Shown in pieces: positions 4,668-44,447 of a stretch of DNA of 64,000 nt; the first letter of the stretch is position 1; each line of letters opens with the position of its first letter. The DNA lies in IMG/VR virus record IMGVR_UViG_2910942425_000008, positions 12,672 through 76,671 of that record; one strand, written 5' to 3'. The position numbers and the translations under genes were made by a program. This stretch comes from a virus (Duplodnaviria > Caudoviricetes). Under the pieces are notes generated by a model. That model was not told where the DNA came from, did not search any database, and saw nothing but the letters and a program-made list of their open reading frames with translations.

Positions 4668-6158
4668 TCATTCTTCATTTCCTCCTATCGGATAATTACT
4701 ATACTCATTTTTCTTTGCTTCATCGGCTTCGATTGCATCAATTTCCGTTTCAATATCATCTTCTTCTACTAGTCCGGCAAGGATAATACCAGTCTTTCTT
4801 GATGCGATACCAGAACCCACCGCATCAGATGCATCTTTTATTTTTTCTGACACGGAATCAATCATATAAGGCACAATCTGTACATCTATATCTATTGTTT
4901 CGGCTGCATCAGCATACGCAGTATTAACCGAACCGATAGCAGACACAAGGAAGTTATACCTACGTTGCAAATGTTCGCCTAAAGTTTCAGCGTGCATCTC
5001 TACGGCCATGTGAGCCCCCATAAATGCATATTTGAAGCTCACCCCGGAGAAAGCATTACCTAAGCCTTGCAAGTTCTCGAAACTGATACGAGGCGTATTT
5101 GTAAGCGAATAGACTCTTTCTGTCAACGTATCTATCTCCAACTTTGCAGCTTCAGGTGTTTGCTGCCAGGACAGATATTTAAGATCGCCACCGTTCTCGA
5201 CTTTAACCATACCTCCCCGTGCTGCTTTTGGATTGTTGCCTGTCACTTCACCGATAGCGACCAATTTCGGGAAGAAATTATAATCAATACAATCACCATA
5301 GTTCGATAAAATAGTCTCAAGACGATTTCGGATAGGGCGTATTTTTGCACATAGCGATTCAGGTCGTGGACTGTATATTGTTGGATTTTTAGGAAAGTTA
5401 TGTCTGAAAGGATGTTTATCCGCATCTTTCCAATCTGCACCATTTTGCACCCACAAATAAACATGCATATCATCTACGAATTGAAAATAATTAACGACAG
5501 TGCCGTCAGTCTGTTTTACCTTGTATTCGCGCCCCAACCCCTTGTAATCATTCACATCATCAAAAAACGGATAAAGCACATCTCCGCGAAAAGGAGACCA
5601 AATAGCACACTTAAATTTGCGGGTAGCATTAGCCTTAACTCCAAAAGCTGATTTTACTTTATTCAGAATAAGTTTCCAGAAGCTTTTATCTTCAACTGTA
5701 TACCAATACTCTGCAACTTCTGTTTCTGCCAACCAAGATCGGACAATGCGTTTATTGTGATACTTAATTTTATTTTTGCGATCGATAGTCTTAACCACTT
5801 TGAAAAGCTCTTTCTCTTTATCATCGTCAGTTTCACAGGTCAAGTTAGGCTCTGTACCGACAGTAAAGGCAGTATGAATATTGACTATATCCTGTTCGAG
5901 TGGTAACGGAATACGATTAACCGGTTCTTCTTTGGTTACAGCAATCTTTATAATCTTATTCGTTAATGGATCTCTTTCTTCCGGCTTGATAACTTTTATT
6001 TCATCAGGGCGTTTTTCCTTATCCATAACATCATGAAGCATCGGATCCCAATCTTTACGGAGTTGATCTACATCAGGCAAAGGCGTTTTTCTAGCCTGCT
6101 TGATTAGCTTTATCTTTTCGGATATATTTTCTTGAGCTAATATTTCTTGTAATGTCAT
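4668..6158 (-). CDS. Portal protein, SPP1 gp6-like
   Basis: 496 aa directly after terminase; NRIPLPLEQDIVNIHTAFTVG, DLKYLSW, acidic C-terminus. Confidence 0.9.
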   Translation of the reverse strand: MTLQEILAQENISEKIKLIKQARKTPLPDVDQLRKDWDPMLHDVMDKEKRPDEIKVIKPEERDPLTNKIIKIAVTKEEPVNRIPLPLEQDIVNIHTAFTVGTEPNLTCETDDDKEKELFKVVKTIDRKNKIKYHNKRIVRSWLAETEVAEYWYTVEDKSFWKLILNKVKSAFGVKANATRKFKCAIWSPFRGDVLYPFFDDVNDYKGLGREYKVKQTDGTVVNYFQFVDDMHVYLWVQNGADWKDADKHPFRHNFPKNPTIYSPRPESLCAKIRPIRNRLETILSNYGDCIDYNFFPKLVAIGEVTGNNPKAARGGMVKVENGGDLKYLSWQQTPEAAKLEIDTLTERVYSLTNTPRISFENLQGLGNAFSGVSFKYAFMGAHMAVEMHAETLGEHLQRRYNFLVSAIGSVNTAYADAAETIDIDVQIVPYMIDSVSEKIKDASDAVGSGIASRKTGIILAGLVEEDDIETEIDAIEADEAKKNEYSNYPIGGNEE

Positions 6159-6169
6159 ACAACTTTATT

Positions 6170-7345
6170 TTAATGAAACACCCCCGATAAATCGAATGAC
6201 TTCCTATTTCTACCTAATATTTCCGAAAGAACAACATACCTACTCGCATCTATCCCATGATTATATGCATCAATAGGTTCATTCAACCATCTCTCGTCTT
6301 TATCTTGAAGGTATGTGTAGTTCTTAAACTCTTTAATCAGATTCACAGACCGTTTCGTTACCTTTATATTCAATTCGAGCATCTTGTTTATTCCTGCCAT
6401 AATAGAACCTTTGAATTTTTCGACAGGATAAATATTAATACCTGCATTTTTAACCTCCTGTATCAGGCGGGGATCTGCGCTTTCTGATATTACTTTTAGT
6501 CCACTATACGGCTTTAGTTCTTTAACAATATCGGCAGATAGCATTTGTGTCCGATAAAATAATTCATCCAAATACAAAGTGTTATCCAATAGGGAAACAT
6601 CAATTCCCGTTGACGGGTCATTGGTATAACCAAAATCCAATCCTATCCACCTCTTCTTTACCCATTGCGGCACTTCGTCTACAATCTCAATATCCTTAAA
6701 TATAAGCCCCTCAATTTGCGCTTGTAATCCTAATCCATATATCTGCCAGAGAGATTTATTTTTATGCTGTAAGCTCTCTATTTCGTCTATGATAGTTTTC
6801 TCCAAAAAAGGATTGTCTTTATATGTAGAAATGAAATGAAATGTTTTTTCTTCTTTATTTAGGTCACATAGCCAATGGTCATCGCTAAAGGAAGGATTAT
6901 AGTCAACAATGGCAAACTTTGTTGTACGCATCTTGAGTTGTTGCCATTCTATGAAAAGAAGCTCGTTAGCCTCATTCACATATAAAATATCTCTTTTACG
7001 CCCTCTCAATTTTTGCTCTGAATCGGTTGAGAAAAATTCAATCCAAGATCCATTAGGGAGAGTGTAAATCATCTCCGTTTTATTCAAACACCCGGAGTCA
7101 AAAATCCCCATATTATATAATATCTCTTTGAAGTCGACAAATACAGATCCCTTTATAGCAGGGAGGGTTGCACGTACAATAGACAGACGTGTAAATGGAT
7201 GTTTAAGGCAATAATTTATAAGCCAAATCAGTATATTATACGTCTTGGAGCTTCGACTACTACCTTGAGCTGAAACAACATTGAATCCATCCTTTATAGC
7301 TTCGTCAACCTTACTGTATATCGGTGTTGTCTGAATCTTTGGCAT
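6170..7345 (-). CDS. Terminase large subunit (PBSX family)
   Basis: Walker A QGSSRSSKT, Walker B LYVNEANE, GLDFGYTNDP, NHGIDASRY. Confidence 0.95.
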   Translation of the reverse strand: MPKIQTTPIYSKVDEAIKDGFNVVSAQGSSRSSKTYNILIWLINYCLKHPFTRLSIVRATLPAIKGSVFVDFKEILYNMGIFDSGCLNKTEMIYTLPNGSWIEFFSTDSEQKLRGRKRDILYVNEANELLFIEWQQLKMRTTKFAIVDYNPSFSDDHWLCDLNKEEKTFHFISTYKDNPFLEKTIIDEIESLQHKNKSLWQIYGLGLQAQIEGLIFKDIEIVDEVPQWVKKRWIGLDFGYTNDPSTGIDVSLLDNTLYLDELFYRTQMLSADIVKELKPYSGLKVISESADPRLIQEVKNAGINIYPVEKFKGSIMAGINKMLELNIKVTKRSVNLIKEFKNYTYLQDKDERWLNEPIDAYNHGIDASRYVVLSEILGRNRKSFDLSGVFH

Positions 7346-7883: not shown

Positions 7884-8582
7884 CTACCCTATTCTTTCCA
7901 CCATATTAGCAAATTCTTCTCCTTGGATAAATTTGGAATCTTGAGTAAACCCAAATCTTTGAAGAAACGATTCTTTTGCTTTTGTGTTTTTAAACACTAA
8001 GGATACGTATGTCTCATGATTGTCTACCATTTCATTTGATTGCTTACGAACTTCCGCCTTTACATTCTTAACATGATCTTTCATCTCTTCATATGGCTTA
8101 GATAACTCTTGAAAATCTGCAACGATATCATTTTGCACATCGAACGATATATCAATACCGATGATACTTAAATCTTGTTCTGTTAATCCCGCATTTTTGT
8201 AGTCTATATCTGGAATAATAGACGCCAGTATATCGTAATCCCAACTACCCATTGCATTTGGGTTATTGAAAAATATATTCAACTCTTTCTCAGTTTTCTC
8301 ATCAACCTCTATGAGCTCTACTTTTATCTTGTAGTCGTTTTCGGGGAAGTTATTCAGTTCATCAAGAATACTTACTTTTTGGTGCCCGGAAACAAGTGTA
8401 TTGCTTGTTGTCTTATTTACGACAAGCCCCCCGACGACACCATATTTCTTTAAGCTACCTTTTAATTGCTTTCTTGCCTCATTTGATATTTTGCGTGGAT
8501 TATATCCTGCAAGTTGAATCTCGGAGCGATATAATTCAACTGTTTCAGACTTGAAGTATTTATTTAATTCGTCCTCTTTCAT
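7884..8582 (-). CDS. ParB/Sulfiredoxin-domain protein
   Basis: YNPRKIS...LKGSLKKYG...LVSGHQK. Confidence 0.85.
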   Translation of the reverse strand: MKEDELNKYFKSETVELYRSEIQLAGYNPRKISNEARKQLKGSLKKYGVVGGLVVNKTTSNTLVSGHQKVSILDELNNFPENDYKIKVELIEVDEKTEKELNIFFNNPNAMGSWDYDILASIIPDIDYKNAGLTEQDLSIIGIDISFDVQNDIVADFQELSKPYEEMKDHVKNVKAEVRKQSNEMVDNHETYVSLVFKNTKAKESFLQRFGFTQDSKFIQGEEFANMVERIG

Positions 8583-9273
8583 CGTTTTGGCTTCTTAGTG
8601 ATTGTTGGTAATCGTATAGTATTTTTTCGCTTAACGGGAAAGCGGAAAGTATTTTCTGTAAATCTTGAGGATAATTATCTTTCAAAAAAAGATACACCTT
8701 TAGGTCAAACCATAGTCCGTTGCCTGCCTCTTTAGAATATTGTATCGGTTCAGGCAAGTTTCTTGATTTCAAATAAGCTAACACCTCTTTCTTTTTCCAT
8801 AAAGACAATGGGTATACATTCTTTGTTTTATTATTTATAGCCTGTAGATCGTAATCATCCCCACGGAGCATAAGCCTTCTATTGAGACTATCTGCTTGCT
8901 TCATGCCATAGAAACACCATTCGATGCCAGTTTTGACACGAACACGTTCTACAATGTCTTTAAGCAACAATAATTTTATTTTAGGATCAGGCTTGCAGTA
9001 TAAGCCTATTTTTAATACCCTTGACATATTCCAATGTGGGACTTCAATGAAAGAAACATTTGGGTATTTTACTTTTGAGTAGTTTATAAAGCGGTCAATA
9101 TGGCTAAGCCCTTTTACGAAATACATATAAACGCACATCACCTCTTTGAAATGTGGTGCAATCAAATCCAACATCGCTATTGAATCTTTACCACAAGAGT
9201 AAAAAAGTAAAATGCGGTCGGTCTTTTGACTAACCGCTTTTACAACTTGTTCTGTATGCGTTAGAACATTCAT
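8560..9273 (-). CDS. PAPS-reductase-like PP-loop protein
   Basis: LLFYSCGKDS PP-loop, GMKQADSLNRR, YPLSLW. Confidence 0.85.
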   Translation of the reverse strand: MNVLTHTEQVVKAVSQKTDRILLFYSCGKDSIAMLDLIAPHFKEVMCVYMYFVKGLSHIDRFINYSKVKYPNVSFIEVPHWNMSRVLKIGLYCKPDPKIKLLLLKDIVERVRVKTGIEWCFYGMKQADSLNRRLMLRGDDYDLQAINNKTKNVYPLSLWKKKEVLAYLKSRNLPEPIQYSKEAGNGLWFDLKVYLFLKDNYPQDLQKILSAFPLSEKILYDYQQSLRSQNDERGRIK

Positions 9274-11763: not shown

Positions 11764-11919
11764 AATTGTAGCGTTTAAATTACTTTCTTGATTCAAAAGT
11801 AATATATAAATTACACAGAACAATAGGTAATAGAAACTTTAACATTACTTTAATATTTACATAGTAGTTTATATATTACAATTGCTTATTTTTGCATGTA
11901 ACTTATAAATTACTATAAT

Positions 11920-12201
11920 ATGTCATTGAGAATAAAAGAGGTTTTAAAAGAGAAAGGATATACTATACAATCATTATCAGAAGTGATGGGAGTAAATAGA
12001 GTGTCTCTTACGAATAGTATTAATGGTAATCCAACTGTTGAAACTTTAGAGAAAATAGCATCAACAATAGGAGTAGATATTTCAGAACTATTTATTAGTG
12101 ATGGGATAATGGGTATAATAAGGGCGAAAGGAATTACTTACGAAATAAATTCCATTGAGGATTTGAAAAAAATTTTGGCTGAAATAGAAAGTGTTAAATA
12201 A
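11920..12201 (+). CDS. Cro/C1-type HTH regulator
   Basis: LRIKEVLKEKGYTIQSLSE...GNPTVETLEKIASTIGV; TATTTTTG promoter element at 11887-11894. Confidence 0.9.
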   Translation: MSLRIKEVLKEKGYTIQSLSEVMGVNRVSLTNSINGNPTVETLEKIASTIGVDISELFISDGIMGIIRAKGITYEINSIEDLKKILAEIESVK

Positions 12202-12237: not shown

Positions 12238-12822
12238 ATGAAGAAATTATTATTAGTTCTGCCTTTAATATCTTTTTTCATCAGTGGATGTTCTACTTCC
12301 AATAAGAATCAATCAGATGTACTAACACATAAAGCCGATTCACTTCATAATGTAATTCAGGAGATAACAAAAAACGAGGACAACTACATAGAAATCCCAT
12401 TTTCTAAACTTATCTCATTATTCAATTCTGATTCATTGCATTTTGATAAATCTATAAAAGATATTGGCTTTAATCGAAACGAAAATTCTATACTATATTT
12501 CAAAGATGGGTTTAGAGTTGACACTAAGGGTATAGGGATAGGTCATTTCATGTTTCATAATATACCTATGATTTTTAGAACGTACGATGTAGATTGGCTT
12601 ACATATACCTTCCCTATCAATCGTCTTTCATATTATAAAACTTCAATTTTAGAGAAAGGCGAATTCACAAAATTATATGAACAAGAAGTCGTTTTTATAG
12701 ATAAATACAATATTAATTTTGTTCGTGAAGTTTATGTTGACCGCATAAGCAAATTAGAGTATGAAGTTTCATATTATAAAGATTATGGTAAAATAAGGAT
12801 ATCAACAAGAAATTATTGGTAA
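12238..12822 (+). CDS. Lipoprotein (moron-like)
   Basis: MKK-hydrophobic-ISGC lipobox. Confidence 0.8.
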   Translation: MKKLLLVLPLISFFISGCSTSNKNQSDVLTHKADSLHNVIQEITKNEDNYIEIPFSKLISLFNSDSLHFDKSIKDIGFNRNENSILYFKDGFRVDTKGIGIGHFMFHNIPMIFRTYDVDWLTYTFPINRLSYYKTSILEKGEFTKLYEQEVVFIDKYNINFVREVYVDRISKLEYEVSYYKDYGKIRISTRNYW

Positions 12823-12836
12823 CTCTTAATCTTTAT

Positions 12837-12938
12837 GTTGTGATAATCTTTCAAATAAAGAGGATATACACCCAGCGCAGGGATTTTCCGGAGTAATCAA
12901 AAGTTGTGATAATCTTTCAAATAAAGAGGATATACACC
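12837..12938. CRISPR. CRISPR mini-array: two identical 36-bp repeats and one 30-bp spacer, no cas genes
   Basis: GTTGTGATAATCTTTCAAATAAAGAGGATATACACC at 12837-12872 and 12903-12938; spacer CAGCGCAGGGATTTTCCGGAGTAATCAAAA. Confidence 0.85.
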
Positions 12939-12949
12939 ATATCCTCTAT

Positions 12950-13369
12950 TTATTTCAACCCCTCCATTTCGACCTTAAATTGCATCTCGGCTAACACAAC
13001 ATCACAATTTCCCCTAAATTTAGTGTACTTTTCGTAATAGAAAGTAAGATTCTTCATTAGGTTACTGATATGCGAGGGCGAAAGTCCGAATAATATAGCT
13101 AACGATTGACGTAAACCCCTTATGAGAAAGTCATCCGCTAAAGCACGAGGACAATAAAGTATCAATATGCAATATAAAAACACTTGCCTATATTCGGTGT
13201 TGTCTTTCCCCGGAAAATCCTGTATTTCGTTCGCTATAACTTCGAACCAATTATACAGCAAAGGAATATGTTGCAGATCTGTTAATTGAGGCTTTAGTAT
13301 CTTTGATTCCAGAATCTCAATTCTTTGTCTTAATTCTGATAATTCTTGTAAGTTTTTTATTGTTTCCAT
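12950..13369 (-). CDS. Conserved Bacteroidales phage protein (possible late regulator)
   Basis: LYCILILYCPRAL...LRQSLAILFG...ISN pattern; sits at the end of the early operon. Confidence 0.7.
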   Translation of the reverse strand: METIKNLQELSELRQRIEILESKILKPQLTDLQHIPLLYNWFEVIANEIQDFPGKDNTEYRQVFLYCILILYCPRALADDFLIRGLRQSLAILFGLSPSHISNLMKNLTFYYEKYTKFRGNCDVVLAEMQFKVEMEGLK

Positions 13370-13475: not shown

Positions 13476-13500
13476 AAAAAAGCCTCCGGGATTGGAGGCT
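13476..13500 (-). terminator. Intrinsic terminator of the early operon
   Basis: AGCCTCC/GGAGGCT stem, U-tract on minus strand. Confidence 0.65.
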
Positions 13501-27133: not shown

Positions 27134-27454
27134 TTAAGTGAACTGAAAACTTTTCTGGTTCCCGTTACCATATCTGATTTGTTTGATTGTTGCTTTGAAT
27201 GGAAAGTCATCTTTGTTTATCTGGTCTAAGTCATGTTTGATGTATTTGGAATCGGTAAAAAACTTACATTCCTTTCCATCAAATCTGACTTTAACAATGT
27301 ATCTGTTATCGCCATGCTGGGTCTTTATCCCGGCCTGAAAATCAATCACCTCTACCTCACAATTTAAGATGTCGCTAATAGACACTACCTGAACATCAAA
27401 TATGGCTTTACCGTCATCCAGTGGCTTTATGCCAAGTTCTGAGAACTTCTTCAT
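27134..27454 (-). CDS. RT-linked small beta-rich protein (candidate DGR accessory)
   Basis: 106 aa, overlaps the RT 3' end by 41 nt. Confidence 0.75.
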   Translation of the reverse strand: MKKFSELGIKPLDDGKAIFDVQVVSISDILNCEVEVIDFQAGIKTQHGDNRYIVKVRFDGKECKFFTDSKYIKHDLDQINKDDFPFKATIKQIRYGNGNQKSFQFT

Positions 27455-28427
27455 TTTTCACAACAGTTTTAATCAGGTTCAGCGAATTACAATATTTTGT
27501 CCAGCCTATCCACGCACAAATGGCTATCCGGTACTCTTTTGGTGTGATGTTTTTATACTTATTCAACTTCGCTATACGCCTGCAAAATTTCTTCTTGATG
27601 CGTTTGCGTAGCCGAGTGTGGGTATGGTAGAAAACATATCCGACAAAGTCGATACCGCGAGCTGTGACAGGAAATACTTGGAAATTATCTTTAAGTTCGA
27701 GTTTCAACCTGTCATTCAGATATTTCCCTATTTCTATCTGTAAGTCATGCAAATAGTTTTTATCATCGCTCAATATTACCATGTCGTCTGCGTACCTGTA
27801 ATAGTATTTTACTTGTTTCTCCTCTTTCAACCAGTGATCGAAATAAGACAGATACAGGTTAGCCAAAAATTGAGAAAGGTAATTCCCGATCGGCAAACCG
27901 GGTGCAGAGTTGATAATGTCATCCAAAAGGTTCAATAGCCGTGCATCCTTTATTTTCTTTCTGACTATTAATTTCATTACTTCGTGGTCAATAGATGGAT
28001 AGAACTTTCGTATGTCCATTTTCAGACAGTAACTTGTATTTTCACTGTCTTTTAAATCACGTTTGATGTGCTTTAATGCACCATGAATCCCCCTGCCTTT
28101 GATGCAGGAATAAGTATGCGAAATAAATACAGATGCCCATATCGGTTCTAATATATTCATTATGGTATGTTGCACAACCCTGTCGCGGAAAGGAAGCCGG
28201 TATATTATCCGTTCTTTCGGGTCGGTAATTGTAAATACATCATATTCCGATATCGTATAAGTTCCATTTATCAAATCGTCTTGAATCATTTGCATGTTTT
28301 CAATCAGATTGCTTTCGAATTGTTTTACACCATAAGATTTTCCTTTGCCTTTCCTCGCTTTGCTATAAGCCAGATAAAGGTTATCGGCGTCACAGATTTT
28401 ATCATATAAATTCCCAAATCGCTTCAT
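27414..28427 (-). CDS. DGR reverse transcriptase
   Basis: MKRFGNLY start, RDRVVQH, MDIRKFYPSI, GLPIGNYLSQ, YADD; no En domain. Confidence 0.95.
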   Translation of the reverse strand: MKRFGNLYDKICDADNLYLAYSKARKGKGKSYGVKQFESNLIENMQMIQDDLINGTYTISEYDVFTITDPKERIIYRLPFRDRVVQHTIMNILEPIWASVFISHTYSCIKGRGIHGALKHIKRDLKDSENTSYCLKMDIRKFYPSIDHEVMKLIVRKKIKDARLLNLLDDIINSAPGLPIGNYLSQFLANLYLSYFDHWLKEEKQVKYYYRYADDMVILSDDKNYLHDLQIEIGKYLNDRLKLELKDNFQVFPVTARGIDFVGYVFYHTHTRLRKRIKKKFCRRIAKLNKYKNITPKEYRIAICAWIGWTKYCNSLNLIKTVVKNEEVLRTWHKATG

Positions 28428-28533
28428 ATAGCCTTTGTTTCTAATCGGAGCCTTCGGTTTCCCTACCAGCACCTTTTGAATTGTTATTTTTCGCCAAGGG
28501 GCGAGGCCTTTGCCTTGATTTTTTATCTTTACA
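28428..28533 (-). ncRNA. DGR spacer (3' part of template RNA) between TR and RT
   Basis: Non-coding; hairpin TCGCC/GGCGA at 28491-28504. Confidence 0.55.
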
Positions 28534-28611
28534 TAGGTGGGAGCTGCTCCCTGCATTCGCATTCGTATTATCGTAGTTCGAGTTGTTGAACGTGAAGGCC
28601 GCAGGAGAGCC
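28534..28611 (-). repeat. DGR template repeat (TR)
   Basis: GGCTCTCCTGCGGCCTTCACGTTCAACAACTCGAACTACGATAATACGAATGCGAATGCAGGGAGCAGCTCCCACCTA; six AAY codons, 21 adenines. Confidence 0.95.
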
Positions 28612-33368: not shown

Positions 33369-34007
33369 ATGGAACTTAACATAAAAGAACTAAGAGATAA
33401 ATTTGGAAAATCACAACAAGCGGTATCAAATGATACTGGAATATCTAGGGATAAAATAGCTAAATGGGAAACTACATCTCACAGACCTAAAACAGAAGAT
33501 TATATTAAATTAAAAAATTATTTCGAATCGCTAGCTAAAGAAGATGGAAATACAGATATTCCTTTAAAATTCTTACAAGCTGAAAATCAAGGTCAACCAA
33601 TACTTGATATACGTGTATGTGCTGGATATGGCATTGGATTAGAGGGTGATGAAAATAAAGTGATTGAGTGGGTAAATATTCCAAAGTTTAACGGCTGCTA
33701 TGGCGTTACCGTTTATGGAGATAGTATGTATGATAAATATAAATCTGGAGATATAATATTCGTTAGACCGATAGAGGGACGTAACGACTTTGACTTTGGG
33801 CAATGTTATGTAATAATCACAAGCGAAGATCGATATATAAAAAATATATATGAAAGTGGAAGGGGTGACGAATATATTACTATGACATCATATAACACAG
33901 ATATAAATCCTGATGGAAGGCGAAAGTTTCCAGATAGAGATATGCTTGTGGACGACATAAAATTTTTATATAAAGTAGCAGGGAAATTAACAAGAGATCA
34001 ACTATAA
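33369..34007 (+). CDS. CI-like repressor (HTH plus S24 peptidase)
   Basis: N-terminal HTH, CAGYG cleavage-site region, VYGDSM Ser, YIKN Lys. Confidence 0.9.
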   Translation: MELNIKELRDKFGKSQQAVSNDTGISRDKIAKWETTSHRPKTEDYIKLKNYFESLAKEDGNTDIPLKFLQAENQGQPILDIRVCAGYGIGLEGDENKVIEWVNIPKFNGCYGVTVYGDSMYDKYKSGDIIFVRPIEGRNDFDFGQCYVIITSEDRYIKNIYESGRGDEYITMTSYNTDINPDGRRKFPDRDMLVDDIKFLYKVAGKLTRDQL

Positions 34008-35094: not shown

Positions 35095-36222
35095 ATGGTT
35101 GGATTATCTATAAATTTTATTTTTGATGTAAAAGGTGTATCTAGTCTTGAAAAGCAGGGCTTGTTACAGATAGTTATAAGGCAAAATAAAACATCTCGGA
35201 GGAAATACATATCTACTGGTATCAGATTGTACAAAAATCAATTCTCAGATAAAAAAGGATTTACCTGTATTAACCATGAAAATGCAAAAGACGTTACGTC
35301 TACAGCATGGGAAATGTATAATAAAATAGAGAAGTTCTGTCTATCTGACAGATGCATAAAATGGGAAGATATAGAAAAATGGGATAAAGATAAAAACGAT
35401 CTTGACTCCGTTATTAAATTTATTGAATCGGAGATGAAGTTGCGAAATATGGAATATAACACTTTGAAGGCGCATGTTACTTTGGTGAATAAGTTAAATG
35501 ACTTCAAGAAGATAAAGATTTTCTCTGATCTAACCTATTCCAATATAACAGAGTTTGATAAATACATGCGAGACAAAGGTATTGGAAATGTTTCTATAAA
35601 TAAAAATCATTCTCTTTTCAATTTGTATATCAAAATAGCAATAAACAAGGATTTGATAGAGAAAAATCCATATAATAAATTCACTCCGCCCAAAGGGAAA
35701 AATAACGATCCTGTTTTTCTCACACAAGATGAAGTGGAAAATATTAAAAAAATATCAGGGCTTAACGATAAACTTGAAAAGGTCAAAGATTTGTTTATTT
35801 TCCAATGCTACACCGGTATGGCATATATTGATATGCAGGGTTTCTCAAAAAATAGTATTCAAGTTGTAGACGAACAAGAAGTCATTAGGAGTAGTCGAAC
35901 CAAGACGGATGAATCTTTTATTTTATTATTTCTGCCTGATGCAAAAAAAATAGCTGAAAAGTATAATTACAATTTACCTAAAATAAGTAATCAAAAATAC
36001 AATGACTATTTAAAATTATTGATTGCTCATCCCAATATTAATATAAATAAAAAGGTGACCTCTCACACCGCCAGACACACATTTGCCACATATCTACTAA
36101 ATAAAGGAATACCAATAGAAACAGTATCCAAAACCTTGGGGCATGCAAGCATAAAGCAGACACAGTTATATGCCAGATTGTTAGGCAAGAAGGTTATAGA
36201 TGACATGAAGAAATTATTATAG
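35095..36222 (+). CDS. Tyrosine integrase
   Basis: Arm-binding N-terminus, RTKT, HTARHTFAT, LGHASIKQTQLYA. Confidence 0.95.
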   Translation: MVGLSINFIFDVKGVSSLEKQGLLQIVIRQNKTSRRKYISTGIRLYKNQFSDKKGFTCINHENAKDVTSTAWEMYNKIEKFCLSDRCIKWEDIEKWDKDKNDLDSVIKFIESEMKLRNMEYNTLKAHVTLVNKLNDFKKIKIFSDLTYSNITEFDKYMRDKGIGNVSINKNHSLFNLYIKIAINKDLIEKNPYNKFTPPKGKNNDPVFLTQDEVENIKKISGLNDKLEKVKDLFIFQCYTGMAYIDMQGFSKNSIQVVDEQEVIRSSRTKTDESFILLFLPDAKKIAEKYNYNLPKISNQKYNDYLKLLIAHPNININKKVTSHTARHTFATYLLNKGIPIETVSKTLGHASIKQTQLYARLLGKKVIDDMKKLL

Positions 36223-42107: not shown

Positions 42108-44447
42108 TTAATTGTAATTGAAATATAAGTCCAGGTTCACGAGTTTAGCCGTTACCCATTTTTCGATGCGTTCAATCGAATTGTAAAAGCCGAGCGCATT
42201 GGGTACGTTATCGTATAGCTTTGTTAAAGGCGCATTGCCCGTTGATGGATCTATACATTCAAAAAGGAAAGTTTGGTATTTGCATTTATCGCCTACATTG
42301 TAAGCAGTTGCGTTGTTATACTCTGTGCCGTTATCCCACTCATCGCCGACAAGCTTCCAATATGCTTCATTAATATAGGATTTGCGATATGAAGGTGTTT
42401 CGCCCCATTTCTCAAACTCCTTTTTATACATGTCCGAACCTATCATTTCAACCCACTCATTAAAGAGATTGACAACGTTTTCAGCCGTAAATATCCCTTT
42501 ATCCCTTAACTCCTTATAGCGGGCTTGAATTTCGGGTTTATATAATTGGTTAAGCCAATAAGACGGCAAACGGTTTTCGAGCCCAAGAATAGCGCTCAAA
42601 CTGTTACGTTTTACCATATTGCCCCGCCAGTGCATACCGAACACACTATCATGGTCGTAAAAAGTAGGACACCATTTAAGCCCATCCCATGTACACCATA
42701 TCCAATTTTTGGCGAAACCGTCAAAATTGTAGACAAATTGAGCGTGTACGAAATAATCAATAAAGAAAGGCACATCGAAGTATTGTTCAAATTCGGCTTT
42801 GGTAGTAGACCCCGAAAAAGTAGGCAAGGCATTACTGAGCCTCACAATATTATCTTTCACCTCTTTTGAAAAAACGTCCGTATTTGACAGTTCTTTCGGA
42901 TAGTCGCCGTTATACTCATTTCCGTTTATGTCTATCAAGTCTTTCGGGTTGCGTACTTCAAATTCAGACCATACGATATTGTTTTGCCAAAATGTACTTA
43001 AAGATAAATTGCCGTCCAGAATGATATGTTTTGAATCACCTTTATTGGCTGCATAATTATCGCGATGCTTCTTAAGGTTGAGAGCATACAGGCCGTAAAA
43101 TTCTTCATTGACGTATATAACAACGGGAAAGCCATCAGGATGGCATAAAGCCTCGTTTACTATATCAGCTTTCAATATGCCTGTGCCATCGTATGCAGTT
43201 GCAGACGGGTAAACGCTTTGATAAGGCTTTCTTTCCCCAACCGGGCGTGTTTGGTACATTTGTTCGCATAGCTTGTAACTTACGTTACATTGCCCCCTGA
43301 AAGCGTCTATATAATATTTCTTTATATGGAAGCTGTCTTGTGCTACCCAGTTCCCAAACTTGATTTTACAGTCGGTAAAGTCTACAGATAGGTTTTTTAC
43401 CATGTATGCCATTGACGATGTGCCCTGTGCATTCAGAATAATGGGCTTCCTGAAATAGTTACCGTCCTTATCCCAATATTCCAATATTGCGTGTATATCG
43501 TCAAATTTACCCGATGGCATCCTTGAAACAATAAGGTTTATCCGCGCCGCAACTCTCGGTATAGGTATGGCAATATCGGATTGTTCCGACCAGTCGCCTG
43601 TACCTTTGCCCGGAGAAAAACCGCTGTCTATTAAATCCTGTTTAAGTTGGGTTATGGCTTTGACAGATAGTTTTATCCTGTCATTTATGGTTGCTGTTTC
43701 AGTCTCAAAGGTACATTCCCACTTTGTACCGTCCTTACGGCGATACGATAAAATCCTGTTTTCAGCGTCCAGCGTCACTTCTATTCGCCCCTCGTTATCG
43801 GTTACAACGGATAGTATTCTCGATATTGCGCCGATAGCGGCGTTCACGGCTGTGTCGGATATAGGTTTGCCCGTGTTGCCTAATACGTTTACAACATCTG
43901 TATAGTTAAGTTTTAGCTTAAGGGCTGCTTTGGTATCTTCGGGCATGCCTTTGGCGACATAGATTTCTCCGTTACGGCGGAAACCGCAAAGGATAGCCGT
44001 TGATGTGTCTGTGATGGCGAAAAGATACTCACTATTCGATATAATGGATAATTGAGCATACACGGCGGGTATATCTTCGGATATTGCTACACCTGTATCA
44101 GACCACGAATCGTTTTTATACTCCCATATAGTGCCAGTATCTAAAATACCCGCTTTGTCGCCCGCTTGTGGTTGTCGCACCGTACCGCTAGCAATATCCG
44201 CCTCCAACTTTTCAAGCGTGGAAAAATAGCCGAGATTGTGTTTGTTTTCTTCTTTTACGGCTTCCAAATCCGCATGAGAGGCTTTATTTTGTTCTAAATC
44301 ATTGAGGGCATCGGTTAGACCGAGTATTTGCGTTTGCGGTAATCTTTCCGATTTATGCCAAAAAGACTTCCATGAATCCGCAAATTGCTTTTCTGTAGGC
44401 TCTTTTCCTTTTTTATAATATGATAATATTGTAAGTAAATCTATCAT
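42108..44447 (-). CDS. Tail fibre-like protein with CotH-type kinase domain
   Basis: N-terminal PT..QF..W.SFWHK fibre anchor; DGFPVVIY...YGLY, FDGFAKN...FYDHDSVFG. Confidence 0.75.
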   Translation of the reverse strand: MIDLLTILSYYKKGKEPTEKQFADSWKSFWHKSERLPQTQILGLTDALNDLEQNKASHADLEAVKEENKHNLGYFSTLEKLEADIASGTVRQPQAGDKAGILDTGTIWEYKNDSWSDTGVAISEDIPAVYAQLSIISNSEYLFAITDTSTAILCGFRRNGEIYVAKGMPEDTKAALKLKLNYTDVVNVLGNTGKPISDTAVNAAIGAISRILSVVTDNEGRIEVTLDAENRILSYRRKDGTKWECTFETETATINDRIKLSVKAITQLKQDLIDSGFSPGKGTGDWSEQSDIAIPIPRVAARINLIVSRMPSGKFDDIHAILEYWDKDGNYFRKPIILNAQGTSSMAYMVKNLSVDFTDCKIKFGNWVAQDSFHIKKYYIDAFRGQCNVSYKLCEQMYQTRPVGERKPYQSVYPSATAYDGTGILKADIVNEALCHPDGFPVVIYVNEEFYGLYALNLKKHRDNYAANKGDSKHIILDGNLSLSTFWQNNIVWSEFEVRNPKDLIDINGNEYNGDYPKELSNTDVFSKEVKDNIVRLSNALPTFSGSTTKAEFEQYFDVPFFIDYFVHAQFVYNFDGFAKNWIWCTWDGLKWCPTFYDHDSVFGMHWRGNMVKRNSLSAILGLENRLPSYWLNQLYKPEIQARYKELRDKGIFTAENVVNLFNEWVEMIGSDMYKKEFEKWGETPSYRKSYINEAYWKLVGDEWDNGTEYNNATAYNVGDKCKYQTFLFECIDPSTGNAPLTKLYDNVPNALGFYNSIERIEKWVTAKLVNLDLYFNYN

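Follow-up and report, generated by a model that had tools for sequence, protein, structure and literature searches.

Phages that carry CRISPR repeats and spacers and nothing more of the system depend on the CRISPR proteins of their host, which makes host immunity either a weapon or a target. The Bacteroidota, a dominant phylum of the gut, are the bearers of most Cas13b systems. Viral mini-arrays and solitary repeats are established and have been documented for DNA-targeting types (PMC6858448, PMC11656645, PMC10651486). The mini-CRISPR arrays of Sulfolobales viruses are presumed to enlist the effector of the host against rival viruses (PMC6858448; review PMC11656645), and they share with the phage unit described here the presence of one or two spacers and of host-type repeats in a viral genome without cas genes. 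Their repeats are identical to those of the host, however, and most of their spacers match related viruses, whereas neither was found for the phage unit, which is of the 36/30 class of the Bacteroidota.

Type VI-B arrays, including that of P. gingivalis VI-B2 (PMC13187072), resemble the phage unit in the 36-nt repeat, the 30-nt spacer, the CAAC end of the guide strand, the inner stem with a U-rich loop and an inverted copy that abuts the first transcribed repeat. In P. gingivalis VI-B2 the leader-repeat hairpin blocks an extraneous guide and transcription reaches the array from genes upstream of it (PMC13187072), a mode of transcription that we propose for the phage unit as well. The phage unit differs from these arrays in having no cas13b or csx27/28 nearby in the window, in starting with GGUG and not GUUG, in carrying T at position 11 and C at position 35 and in its weaker fold. 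Csm (III-A) arrays (L115, L056, L037 and the metagenomic L128) have the 5' motif, the 66-nt period and the ACACC/ACACG end in common with the phage repeat, but the identity is only 25-26/36 and this repeat class is rare.

Prophage CRISPR repeats without cas genes are also known from the anti-CRISPR elements Racr (PMC10651486) and Cracr (bioRxiv 10.1101/2024.10.29.618823), from which the phage unit is distinguished by two full repeats, a full-length spacer and a masked first repeat. Finally, off-target integration loci (Nivala 2018, as far as its citation in PMC7054753 describes them) consist, like the phage unit, of a repeat-length duplication that flanks one spacer-length insert outside the canonical locus. 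According to the same citation they arose in E. coli type I-E under overproduction of Cas1-Cas2, whereas the phage site already resembles a full CRISPR repeat.

The repeat-spacer unit and its phage

The window, that is, the whole 64-kb stretch of DNA that was analysed, contains a 36/30/36 unit between the convergent genes ORF194 and ORF139 (Table 1). Two direct repeats of 36 nt, 100% identical to each other, enclose a spacer of 30 nt (coordinates on the + strand), exactly as an earlier note on this DNA had described. As a control for the repeat pair, the window was shuffled 100 times with its dinucleotides preserved; no shuffle gave any match with three or fewer mismatches, and among direct repeats of at least 24 nt lying within 150 nt of each other the unit is the sole case in the whole 64 kb. 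The spacer does not resemble the 30 nt on either side of the unit, so the layout is A-B-A and not that of a tandem duplication. The unit thus combines near-identical direct repeats within the 23-55 nt of CRISPR arrays in general with a unique spacer, and like other mini-arrays it sits in a viral genome, holds one or two spacers (here one) and lacks cas genes. The last point, also made in the earlier note, was borne out by tblastn of the 64-kb window with proteins from real arrays (Cas13b, Cas9, Cas10/Csm1, Csm5, TnpB-like and ECF-sigma queries), which revealed no cas-type gene (best E 0.04). The unit is a genuine phage-borne mini-array without cas genes. Read on the minus strand it shows the 5-bp inner stem and the CACAAC end reported before, and repeat 1 would on that strand be the direct repeat kept in a mature guide composed of spacer and repeat.

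Table 1. Positions in the window of the repeat-spacer unit, its flanking features and the main genes of the phage.
Feature	Position	Strand	Description
Portal	4668-6158		
TerL	6170-7345
Promoter-like site	11884-11919	+	before HTH-lipoprotein cassette
XRE-type HTH regulator	11920-12201	+	PF01381 (E 2.8e-10); phrog_8; first gene of accessory cassette
ORF194 lipoprotein	12238-12822	+	signal peptide, lipobox Cys at residue 18; stop 14 nt before repeat 1
Repeat 1	12837-12872	-	36 nt; exact duplicate of 12903-12938; 5-bp inner stem
Spacer	12873-12902	-	30 nt, 47% G+C
Repeat 2	12903-12938	-	36 nt; read first on the minus strand; half nearest 12938 is a hairpin arm
Inverted degenerate half-copy of repeat	12939-12958	-	directly abuts repeat 2; overlaps ORF139 stop codon
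ORF139	12950-13369	-	phrog_38368, no assigned function; homologs 61-71% identical
Terminator-like site	13481-13500	-	upstream of ORF139
CI-like repressor	33369-34007
Integrase	35095-36222		rightmost gene listed for the array-bearing phage

By gene content (PHROG/Pfam), the DNA that surrounds the array is an integrated temperate phage, whose order from right to left is integrase, CI-like repressor, a minus-strand early region (DGR reverse transcriptase, helicases, replication initiator and DnaB), Ant, ParB, PAPS-reductase, TerL, portal and head genes. Since the proteins of the window come from a contig of 188,640 bp, we take the phage to be a prophage on a bacterial contig. The weak nucleotide matches of the window are to Bacteroides phages and homologs of the lipoprotein lie beside SusR-type genes, which points to a Bacteroidota-like host. 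Relatives of the portal protein were found in only two of 251 Bacteroidales genomes (51% and 37% identity), a megablast of 25 kb of the window against phages gave no match, and IMG/VR yielded no relatives of the flanking genes.

Repeat family

To find related arrays, we scanned for two copies of the motif GTTGT-N6-CYTYCAAA at CRISPR spacing and obtained at least 119 loci, nearly all from Bacteroidota and typically with a period of 66 nt. The phage repeat agrees with the motif at 14 of 14 positions and therefore belongs to this 36-nt superfamily of the Bacteroidota. The motif is common to arrays that adjoin cas genes: among the matches listed, the neighbours were Cas13b in 38 cases (NF038190, E 1e-245), Cas9 in 12, Csm in 3 and TnpB-like plus ECF sigma genes in 8-9. 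A covariance model of VI-B repeats was set aside because most of these repeats had been retrieved with the motif of the phage repeat itself. This circularity was avoided by picking Cas13b and Csm1 loci by protein family, not by motif, in 251 sampled Bacteroidales genomes, of which 13 carried Cas13b and 24 Csm1. In this sample 7/7 Cas13b loci carry arrays of the phage repeat's family, and the two Csm1 loci accompanied by arrays have a different, unrelated repeat of 37 nt.

We also observed that the arrays beside TnpB-like and ECF sigma-70 genes (L003, L006, L034, L054, L068, L082, L107 and L111; Sphingobacterium, Parapedobacter and others) have the same 5' repeat motif and that some of them end in ACACC. 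These loci look like the dCas12f-sigmaE systems of RNA-guided transcription (PMC13472631).

The search for a cognate repeat, which the earlier note had proposed in host and CRISPR databases, returned no exact copy. The 36-mer is absent from 185,579 species genomes (one per species), from JGI metagenomes and from IMG/VR, and none of 401 Bacteroidales genomes has the repeat within three mismatches; the best identity to any array, among the matches listed, is 28/36. Against phage and plasmid collections, blastn of repeat and spacer gave only chance-level matches of 16-21 nt. When the two-copy motif scan was restricted to T at position 11, the metagenomes gave only L128, with the Csm-type repeat of L115 (26/36), and IMG/VR gave nothing. 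The array did not turn up in any other phage, so that the unit is a single occurrence in these collections.

A duplication of non-CRISPR origin, tied to a bidirectional terminator between the convergent genes, has some observations in its favour: part of the repeat forms a terminator stem, the half of the repeat that is best kept in the related contig L137 (see below) is this same part, and no Rfam CRISPR-DR family matches the repeat, even at E up to 10. A simple tandem duplication, however, cannot give an A-B-A arrangement of 36 + 30 + 36 nt, the period of 66 nt equals that of real arrays, and by our own arithmetic the chance of matching the 12 fixed and two two-fold positions of the motif is about 1.5e-8. 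This reading is disfavoured and, in our judgement, highly improbable. We are confident that the array structure is real and derived from CRISPR.

Repeat class

To compare the phage repeat with the distinct classes, we scored it against class profiles, using the 23 positions that the motif leaves free, and evaluated the scores against shuffles. The repeat reached +5.2 bits for III-A (p=0.0005), +1.2 bits for VI-B (p=0.002), -2.1 bits for TnpB/sigma (p=0.0065) and -21.8 bits for II-C (p=0.28). In a leave-one-out analysis true members of the classes average 12-22 bits, the VI-B mean being 21.8 against +1.2 for the phage repeat, and the profiles classified 12/12 true II-C repeats correctly. Identity of the phage repeat to VI-B repeats has a median of 24/36 and a maximum of 28/36, values that fall within the 5-95% range of 19-33 found among VI-B repeats themselves (median 27), for which the typical nearest neighbour stands at 33/36.

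Among the matches listed (n=38), position 11 is C in 97% and position 35 is A in 95% of the Cas13b repeats, and the phage repeat has T and C there, the same states as in the Csm-associated repeat of L115/L128. The change at position 35 breaks the GUUG/CAAC closing stem, as the guide strand reads GGUG ... CAAC, and the complementary ends of VI-B repeats (GUUG ... CAAC) are therefore missing. The inner stem of 5 bp has been kept through a two-sided change, from C11-G26 to T11-A25. The fold of the whole repeat (-4.1 kcal/mol) is weaker than that of 38/38 VI-B repeats (-4.2 to -13.1). Of the other features of VI-B arrays, the repeat length of 36 nt, the spacer of about 30 nt (PMC13187072) and the inner hairpin with a U-rich loop are all present.

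The earlier note had described the repeat as Cas13b-like. Its family resemblance holds, in the complete motif and in the VI-B score, which shuffles rarely equal; a typical place within the class does not, given that the best identity is 28/36, that two near-invariant bases are changed and that the fold is the weakest of all. The alternative assignment to type II-C, also raised there, is disfavoured by a profile score no better than that of shuffles. Repeats of this type have the 5' motif in common with the phage repeat and differ from it within the first 20 nt mainly at positions 9-11, and their 3' half is unlike that of the phage repeat. Judged from sequence, the repeat appears to be an outlying member of a VI-B-like family and is probably related to RNA-targeting systems. 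Cas13b would most likely be its partner, Csm is a possible one and Cas9 an unlikely one. Because the Csm-associated and the TnpB-like/ECF-sigma repeat classes carry the same motif, Cas13b is not the sole candidate, and its assignment is plausible but unproven.

Flanking hairpin and strand

Compared with the reverse complement of repeat positions 6-23, the half-copy beside repeat 2 agrees at 17 of 18 positions and contains an insertion of 2 nt. With repeat 2 it is predicted to form a hairpin of -14.1 to -14.8 kcal/mol that has 21 flank-repeat pairs (ddG -10.7), and it may be either a leader-like or a terminator arm. The hairpin was scored as terminator-like on both strands (12925-12947), preceding the array on the minus strand and following it on the plus strand.

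The earlier note had assumed that the guide is read from the minus strand, and this strand does correspond to the guide strand of real Cas13b arrays: in 33/33 of those having both ends, cas13b is co-directional with the equivalent of the phage minus strand. In many of these 33 arrays the leader is an inverted degenerate copy of the repeat that abuts the first transcribed repeat, the same layout as in the phage unit. At least 12 flank-repeat pairs occur in 43% of VI-B arrays at the leader end versus 14% at the other end, while other classes show about 30% at both ends; the leader-type hairpin would therefore favour the VI-B reading in a supportive, not a specific, manner. The summed pairing probability of leader and repeat was not significant against shuffled leaders (60/200), and this statistic was dropped because A/U-rich shuffles also pair with the repeat.

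Transcription on the plus strand is at least as likely, since a promoter-like site precedes the cassette and a terminator follows the array. The promoter-like site includes a sigma-70-like match of 10/12 at 11891-11919 (+) and, at about 11884-11891, a readable box of the TAnnTTTG type, the Bacteroides -7 consensus. A plus-strand RNA is antisense for VI-B or III-A use. It could serve a host II-C Cas9 if, in lysogens, a single transcript covered the lipoprotein gene and the array and stopped at the hairpin, so that a guide of spacer plus the 5' part of repeat 2 would pair with the host tracrRNA and cut incoming DNA. Several features would suit such a guide: the promoter-like site, the terminator-like hairpin that directly follows the array, the 5' motif that Bacteroidota Cas9 arrays have in common with the repeat, and the fact that, judging from the coordinates, the hairpin stem leaves out the first 22 nt of repeat 2. 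Against it stand the II-C profile score obtained with profiles that recognised every true II-C repeat, the dissimilar 3' half of the repeat, and the window itself, in which no tracrRNA-like anti-repeat was found for the 5' part of the repeat (positions 1-24). We consider a Cas9 guide on the plus strand quite improbable.

Spacer

A search of the spacer against phages, as suggested in the earlier note, recovered no protospacer in INPHARED, IMG/VR or PLSDB. In IMG/VR both an exact search and one with every third base left free, in all three frames, were without a match, as were the searches of INPHARED, PLSDB and the fetched loci, and the window contains no self-target within three mismatches. 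The G+C content of the spacer (47%, against 31% locally) lends weak support to a foreign origin. We also detected a partial match of spacer positions 9-24 (12881-12896) to the coding strand of ORF139 at 13205-13220 (14/16, 11 contiguous). It is probably due to chance, as about 0.6 such 11-mers are expected per window.

Flanking genes and the related contig L137

ORF194 belongs to no Pfam or PHROG family, and its own family, of the Bacteroidota, is small (6 word-index matches and 11 HMMER representatives). The predicted model (pLDDT 78.6) gave only weak matches to PsbP/DcrB/Mog1-like folds, at E of about 8e-3. The protein may be a factor of lysogenic conversion or exclusion. On the other side of the array, homologs of ORF139 sit in syntenic early regions of related elements. 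In the relatives of ORF139 (L129-L136) the corresponding slot has no array and holds an HTH-Fic-ORF136 cassette on the opposite strand in place of the HTH-lipoprotein pair, which indicates that the slot after ORF139 swaps accessory cassettes. Because ORF139 is the last minus-strand gene before the array, its transcript would run into the array.

The closest homolog of ORF194 (78% identical) is encoded on the 3.5-kb contig L137 (Logan ERR11172848), within the same HTH-lipoprotein pair. Immediately after the stop codon of its lipoprotein gene (0 nt), at L137:1130-1165, there is a single repeat-like stretch of 36 nt that matches the phage repeat at 26/36 positions without gaps, as compared with a chance maximum of 22/36 over 127,610 window positions, and that is followed by a terminator hairpin. 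By hand count the copy fits 10/14 motif positions, versus 14/14 in the phage repeat. No second copy and no spacer were found on this contig, and more distant lipoprotein homologs, including the chromosomal ones adjacent to SusR, have no repeat-like 3' flank. A remnant of the repeat at the same site indicates that the repeat travels with the accessory cassette. Most simply, the two perfect copies and the spacer of the phage are a recent insertion by Cas1-Cas2 at a solitary repeat that was already there; alternatively, L137 is an array that has collapsed and is decaying.

These data also bear on the question of whether the unit has any function. A Cas1-Cas2 integrase of the host could have inserted a spacer ectopically at a repeat-like site of the prophage, duplicating 36 nt and leaving a "neo-CRISPR" by-product that no effector uses. 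The complete identity of the repeats fits a recent duplication, L137 retains one decayed copy at the corresponding site, the repeat stands apart from all classes, and in the collections searched the unit occurs once, with one spacer and with no cognate and no target. Moreover, off-target integration by E. coli Cas1-Cas2 creates repeat-spacer units, as reported by Nivala 2018 in the form cited by PMC7054753. A chance integration site, on the other hand, needs neither the agreement with all 14 consensus positions (10/14 by hand count in L137), nor a compensated stem, nor an abutting inverted half-repeat arranged as in the leaders of real VI-B arrays, and we regard a functionless by-product as doubtful.

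A further reading of the phage unit is that of an RNA anti-CRISPR, in which repeats act as a decoy for Cas proteins (Racr-like) or a spacer steers the effector to the host cas promoter (Cracr-like), and the solitary repeat of L137 would suit it. Solitary repeats and small arrays of phages are established in this role for types I, V-A and others (PMC10651486; bioRxiv 10.1101/2024.10.29.618823), and the neighbouring HTH gene is of a kind often found beside anti-CRISPR genes. The phage unit departs from the Racr arrangement, an accessible single repeat that usually follows a promoter closely and has no spacer, as it has two repeats and a 30-nt spacer, its first repeat is paired, and it lies 3' of genes on both strands. 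The hairpin hides the repeat that is transcribed first, whereas a decoy would need it exposed, and this speaks against a plain decoy; in addition, none of the host repeats found comes close to the phage repeat, and in a survey of 2023 type VI was the one type without viral solitary repeats (PMC10651486). We consider an anti-CRISPR role of either kind improbable.

Proposed origin and working

The best explanation overall, which we hold tentatively and as possible rather than probable, is that of a CRISPR-type unit at the 3' end of the cassette that arose from a solitary repeat and would work as a minus-strand guide for a host effector. That the cassette carried a solitary repeat beforehand is suggested by the decayed copy that its closest relative, L137, keeps after the stop codon. 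Cas1-Cas2 of the host would have inserted one spacer of 30 nt and, in doing so, duplicated the 36-nt repeat; the ability of VI-B arrays to acquire spacers in trans, by way of II-C Cas1-Cas2, is known from work cited in PMC10367356. Minus-strand transcription of ORF139 would continue into the unit and add it to the 3' end of the transcript, and the 20 nt before the first transcribed repeat would fold back onto it, as do the leaders of Cas13b arrays. With the first repeat masked by the hairpin, only the spacer and the second repeat would be free for effector binding and excision. An RNA-guided effector of the host, with Cas13b as first candidate and a Csm complex as second, would then cut out the guide. 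The product would be a single phage-encoded guide against RNA, presumably that of a competing mobile element, to the putative benefit of the phage. The earlier note had likewise inferred hijacking of the host effector or else a decoy role.

A more specific proposal is that this unit is the first described virus-borne mini-array of type VI: one Cas13b guide that brings along a leader-repeat hairpin to restrict production to the one intended guide, and that acts through host Cas13b against the RNA of a competitor. The repeat at the end of an accessory gene would also be a landing pad open to refilling in trans by host Cas1-Cas2. Taken as a whole this is speculative and rather unlikely. A prophage unit of the Cas13b family would be a new subtype of a known phenomenon, as the 2023 survey contained no type VI (PMC10651486), and it would extend mini-arrays to RNA-targeting, dormancy-inducing systems. 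Both the decayed copy in L137 and the location at a gene end give an opening for studying the origin of such units. The biological weight is still modest, because no cognate system, target or second occurrence was found in the collections searched.

Other features of the window

The early region of the phage encodes a DGR-type reverse transcriptase at 27414-28562 (-) (phrog_1423, E 1e-129), and an Rfam RT-17 RNA match at 28426-28508 (-), with 44 bits and above the gathering score, lies inside the 5' region of this gene. ParB-like and PAPS-reductase-like genes at 7884-9273 (-) are located directly upstream of the large terminase gene. Further phage-like DNA was detected past the integrase, at 36300-64000. 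It comprises a minus-strand block at 36.3-55.7 kb with tail, baseplate, sheath and head-protease genes, and a plus-strand block with portal, tape-measure and TerL genes, the TerL sharing 48% identity with its counterpart in Flavobacterium phage fF4. The arrangement points to adjacent or nested prophages. The tail region also encodes, at 42108-44447 (-), a protein of 779 aa with a CotH kinase domain (PF08757, E 3e-17).
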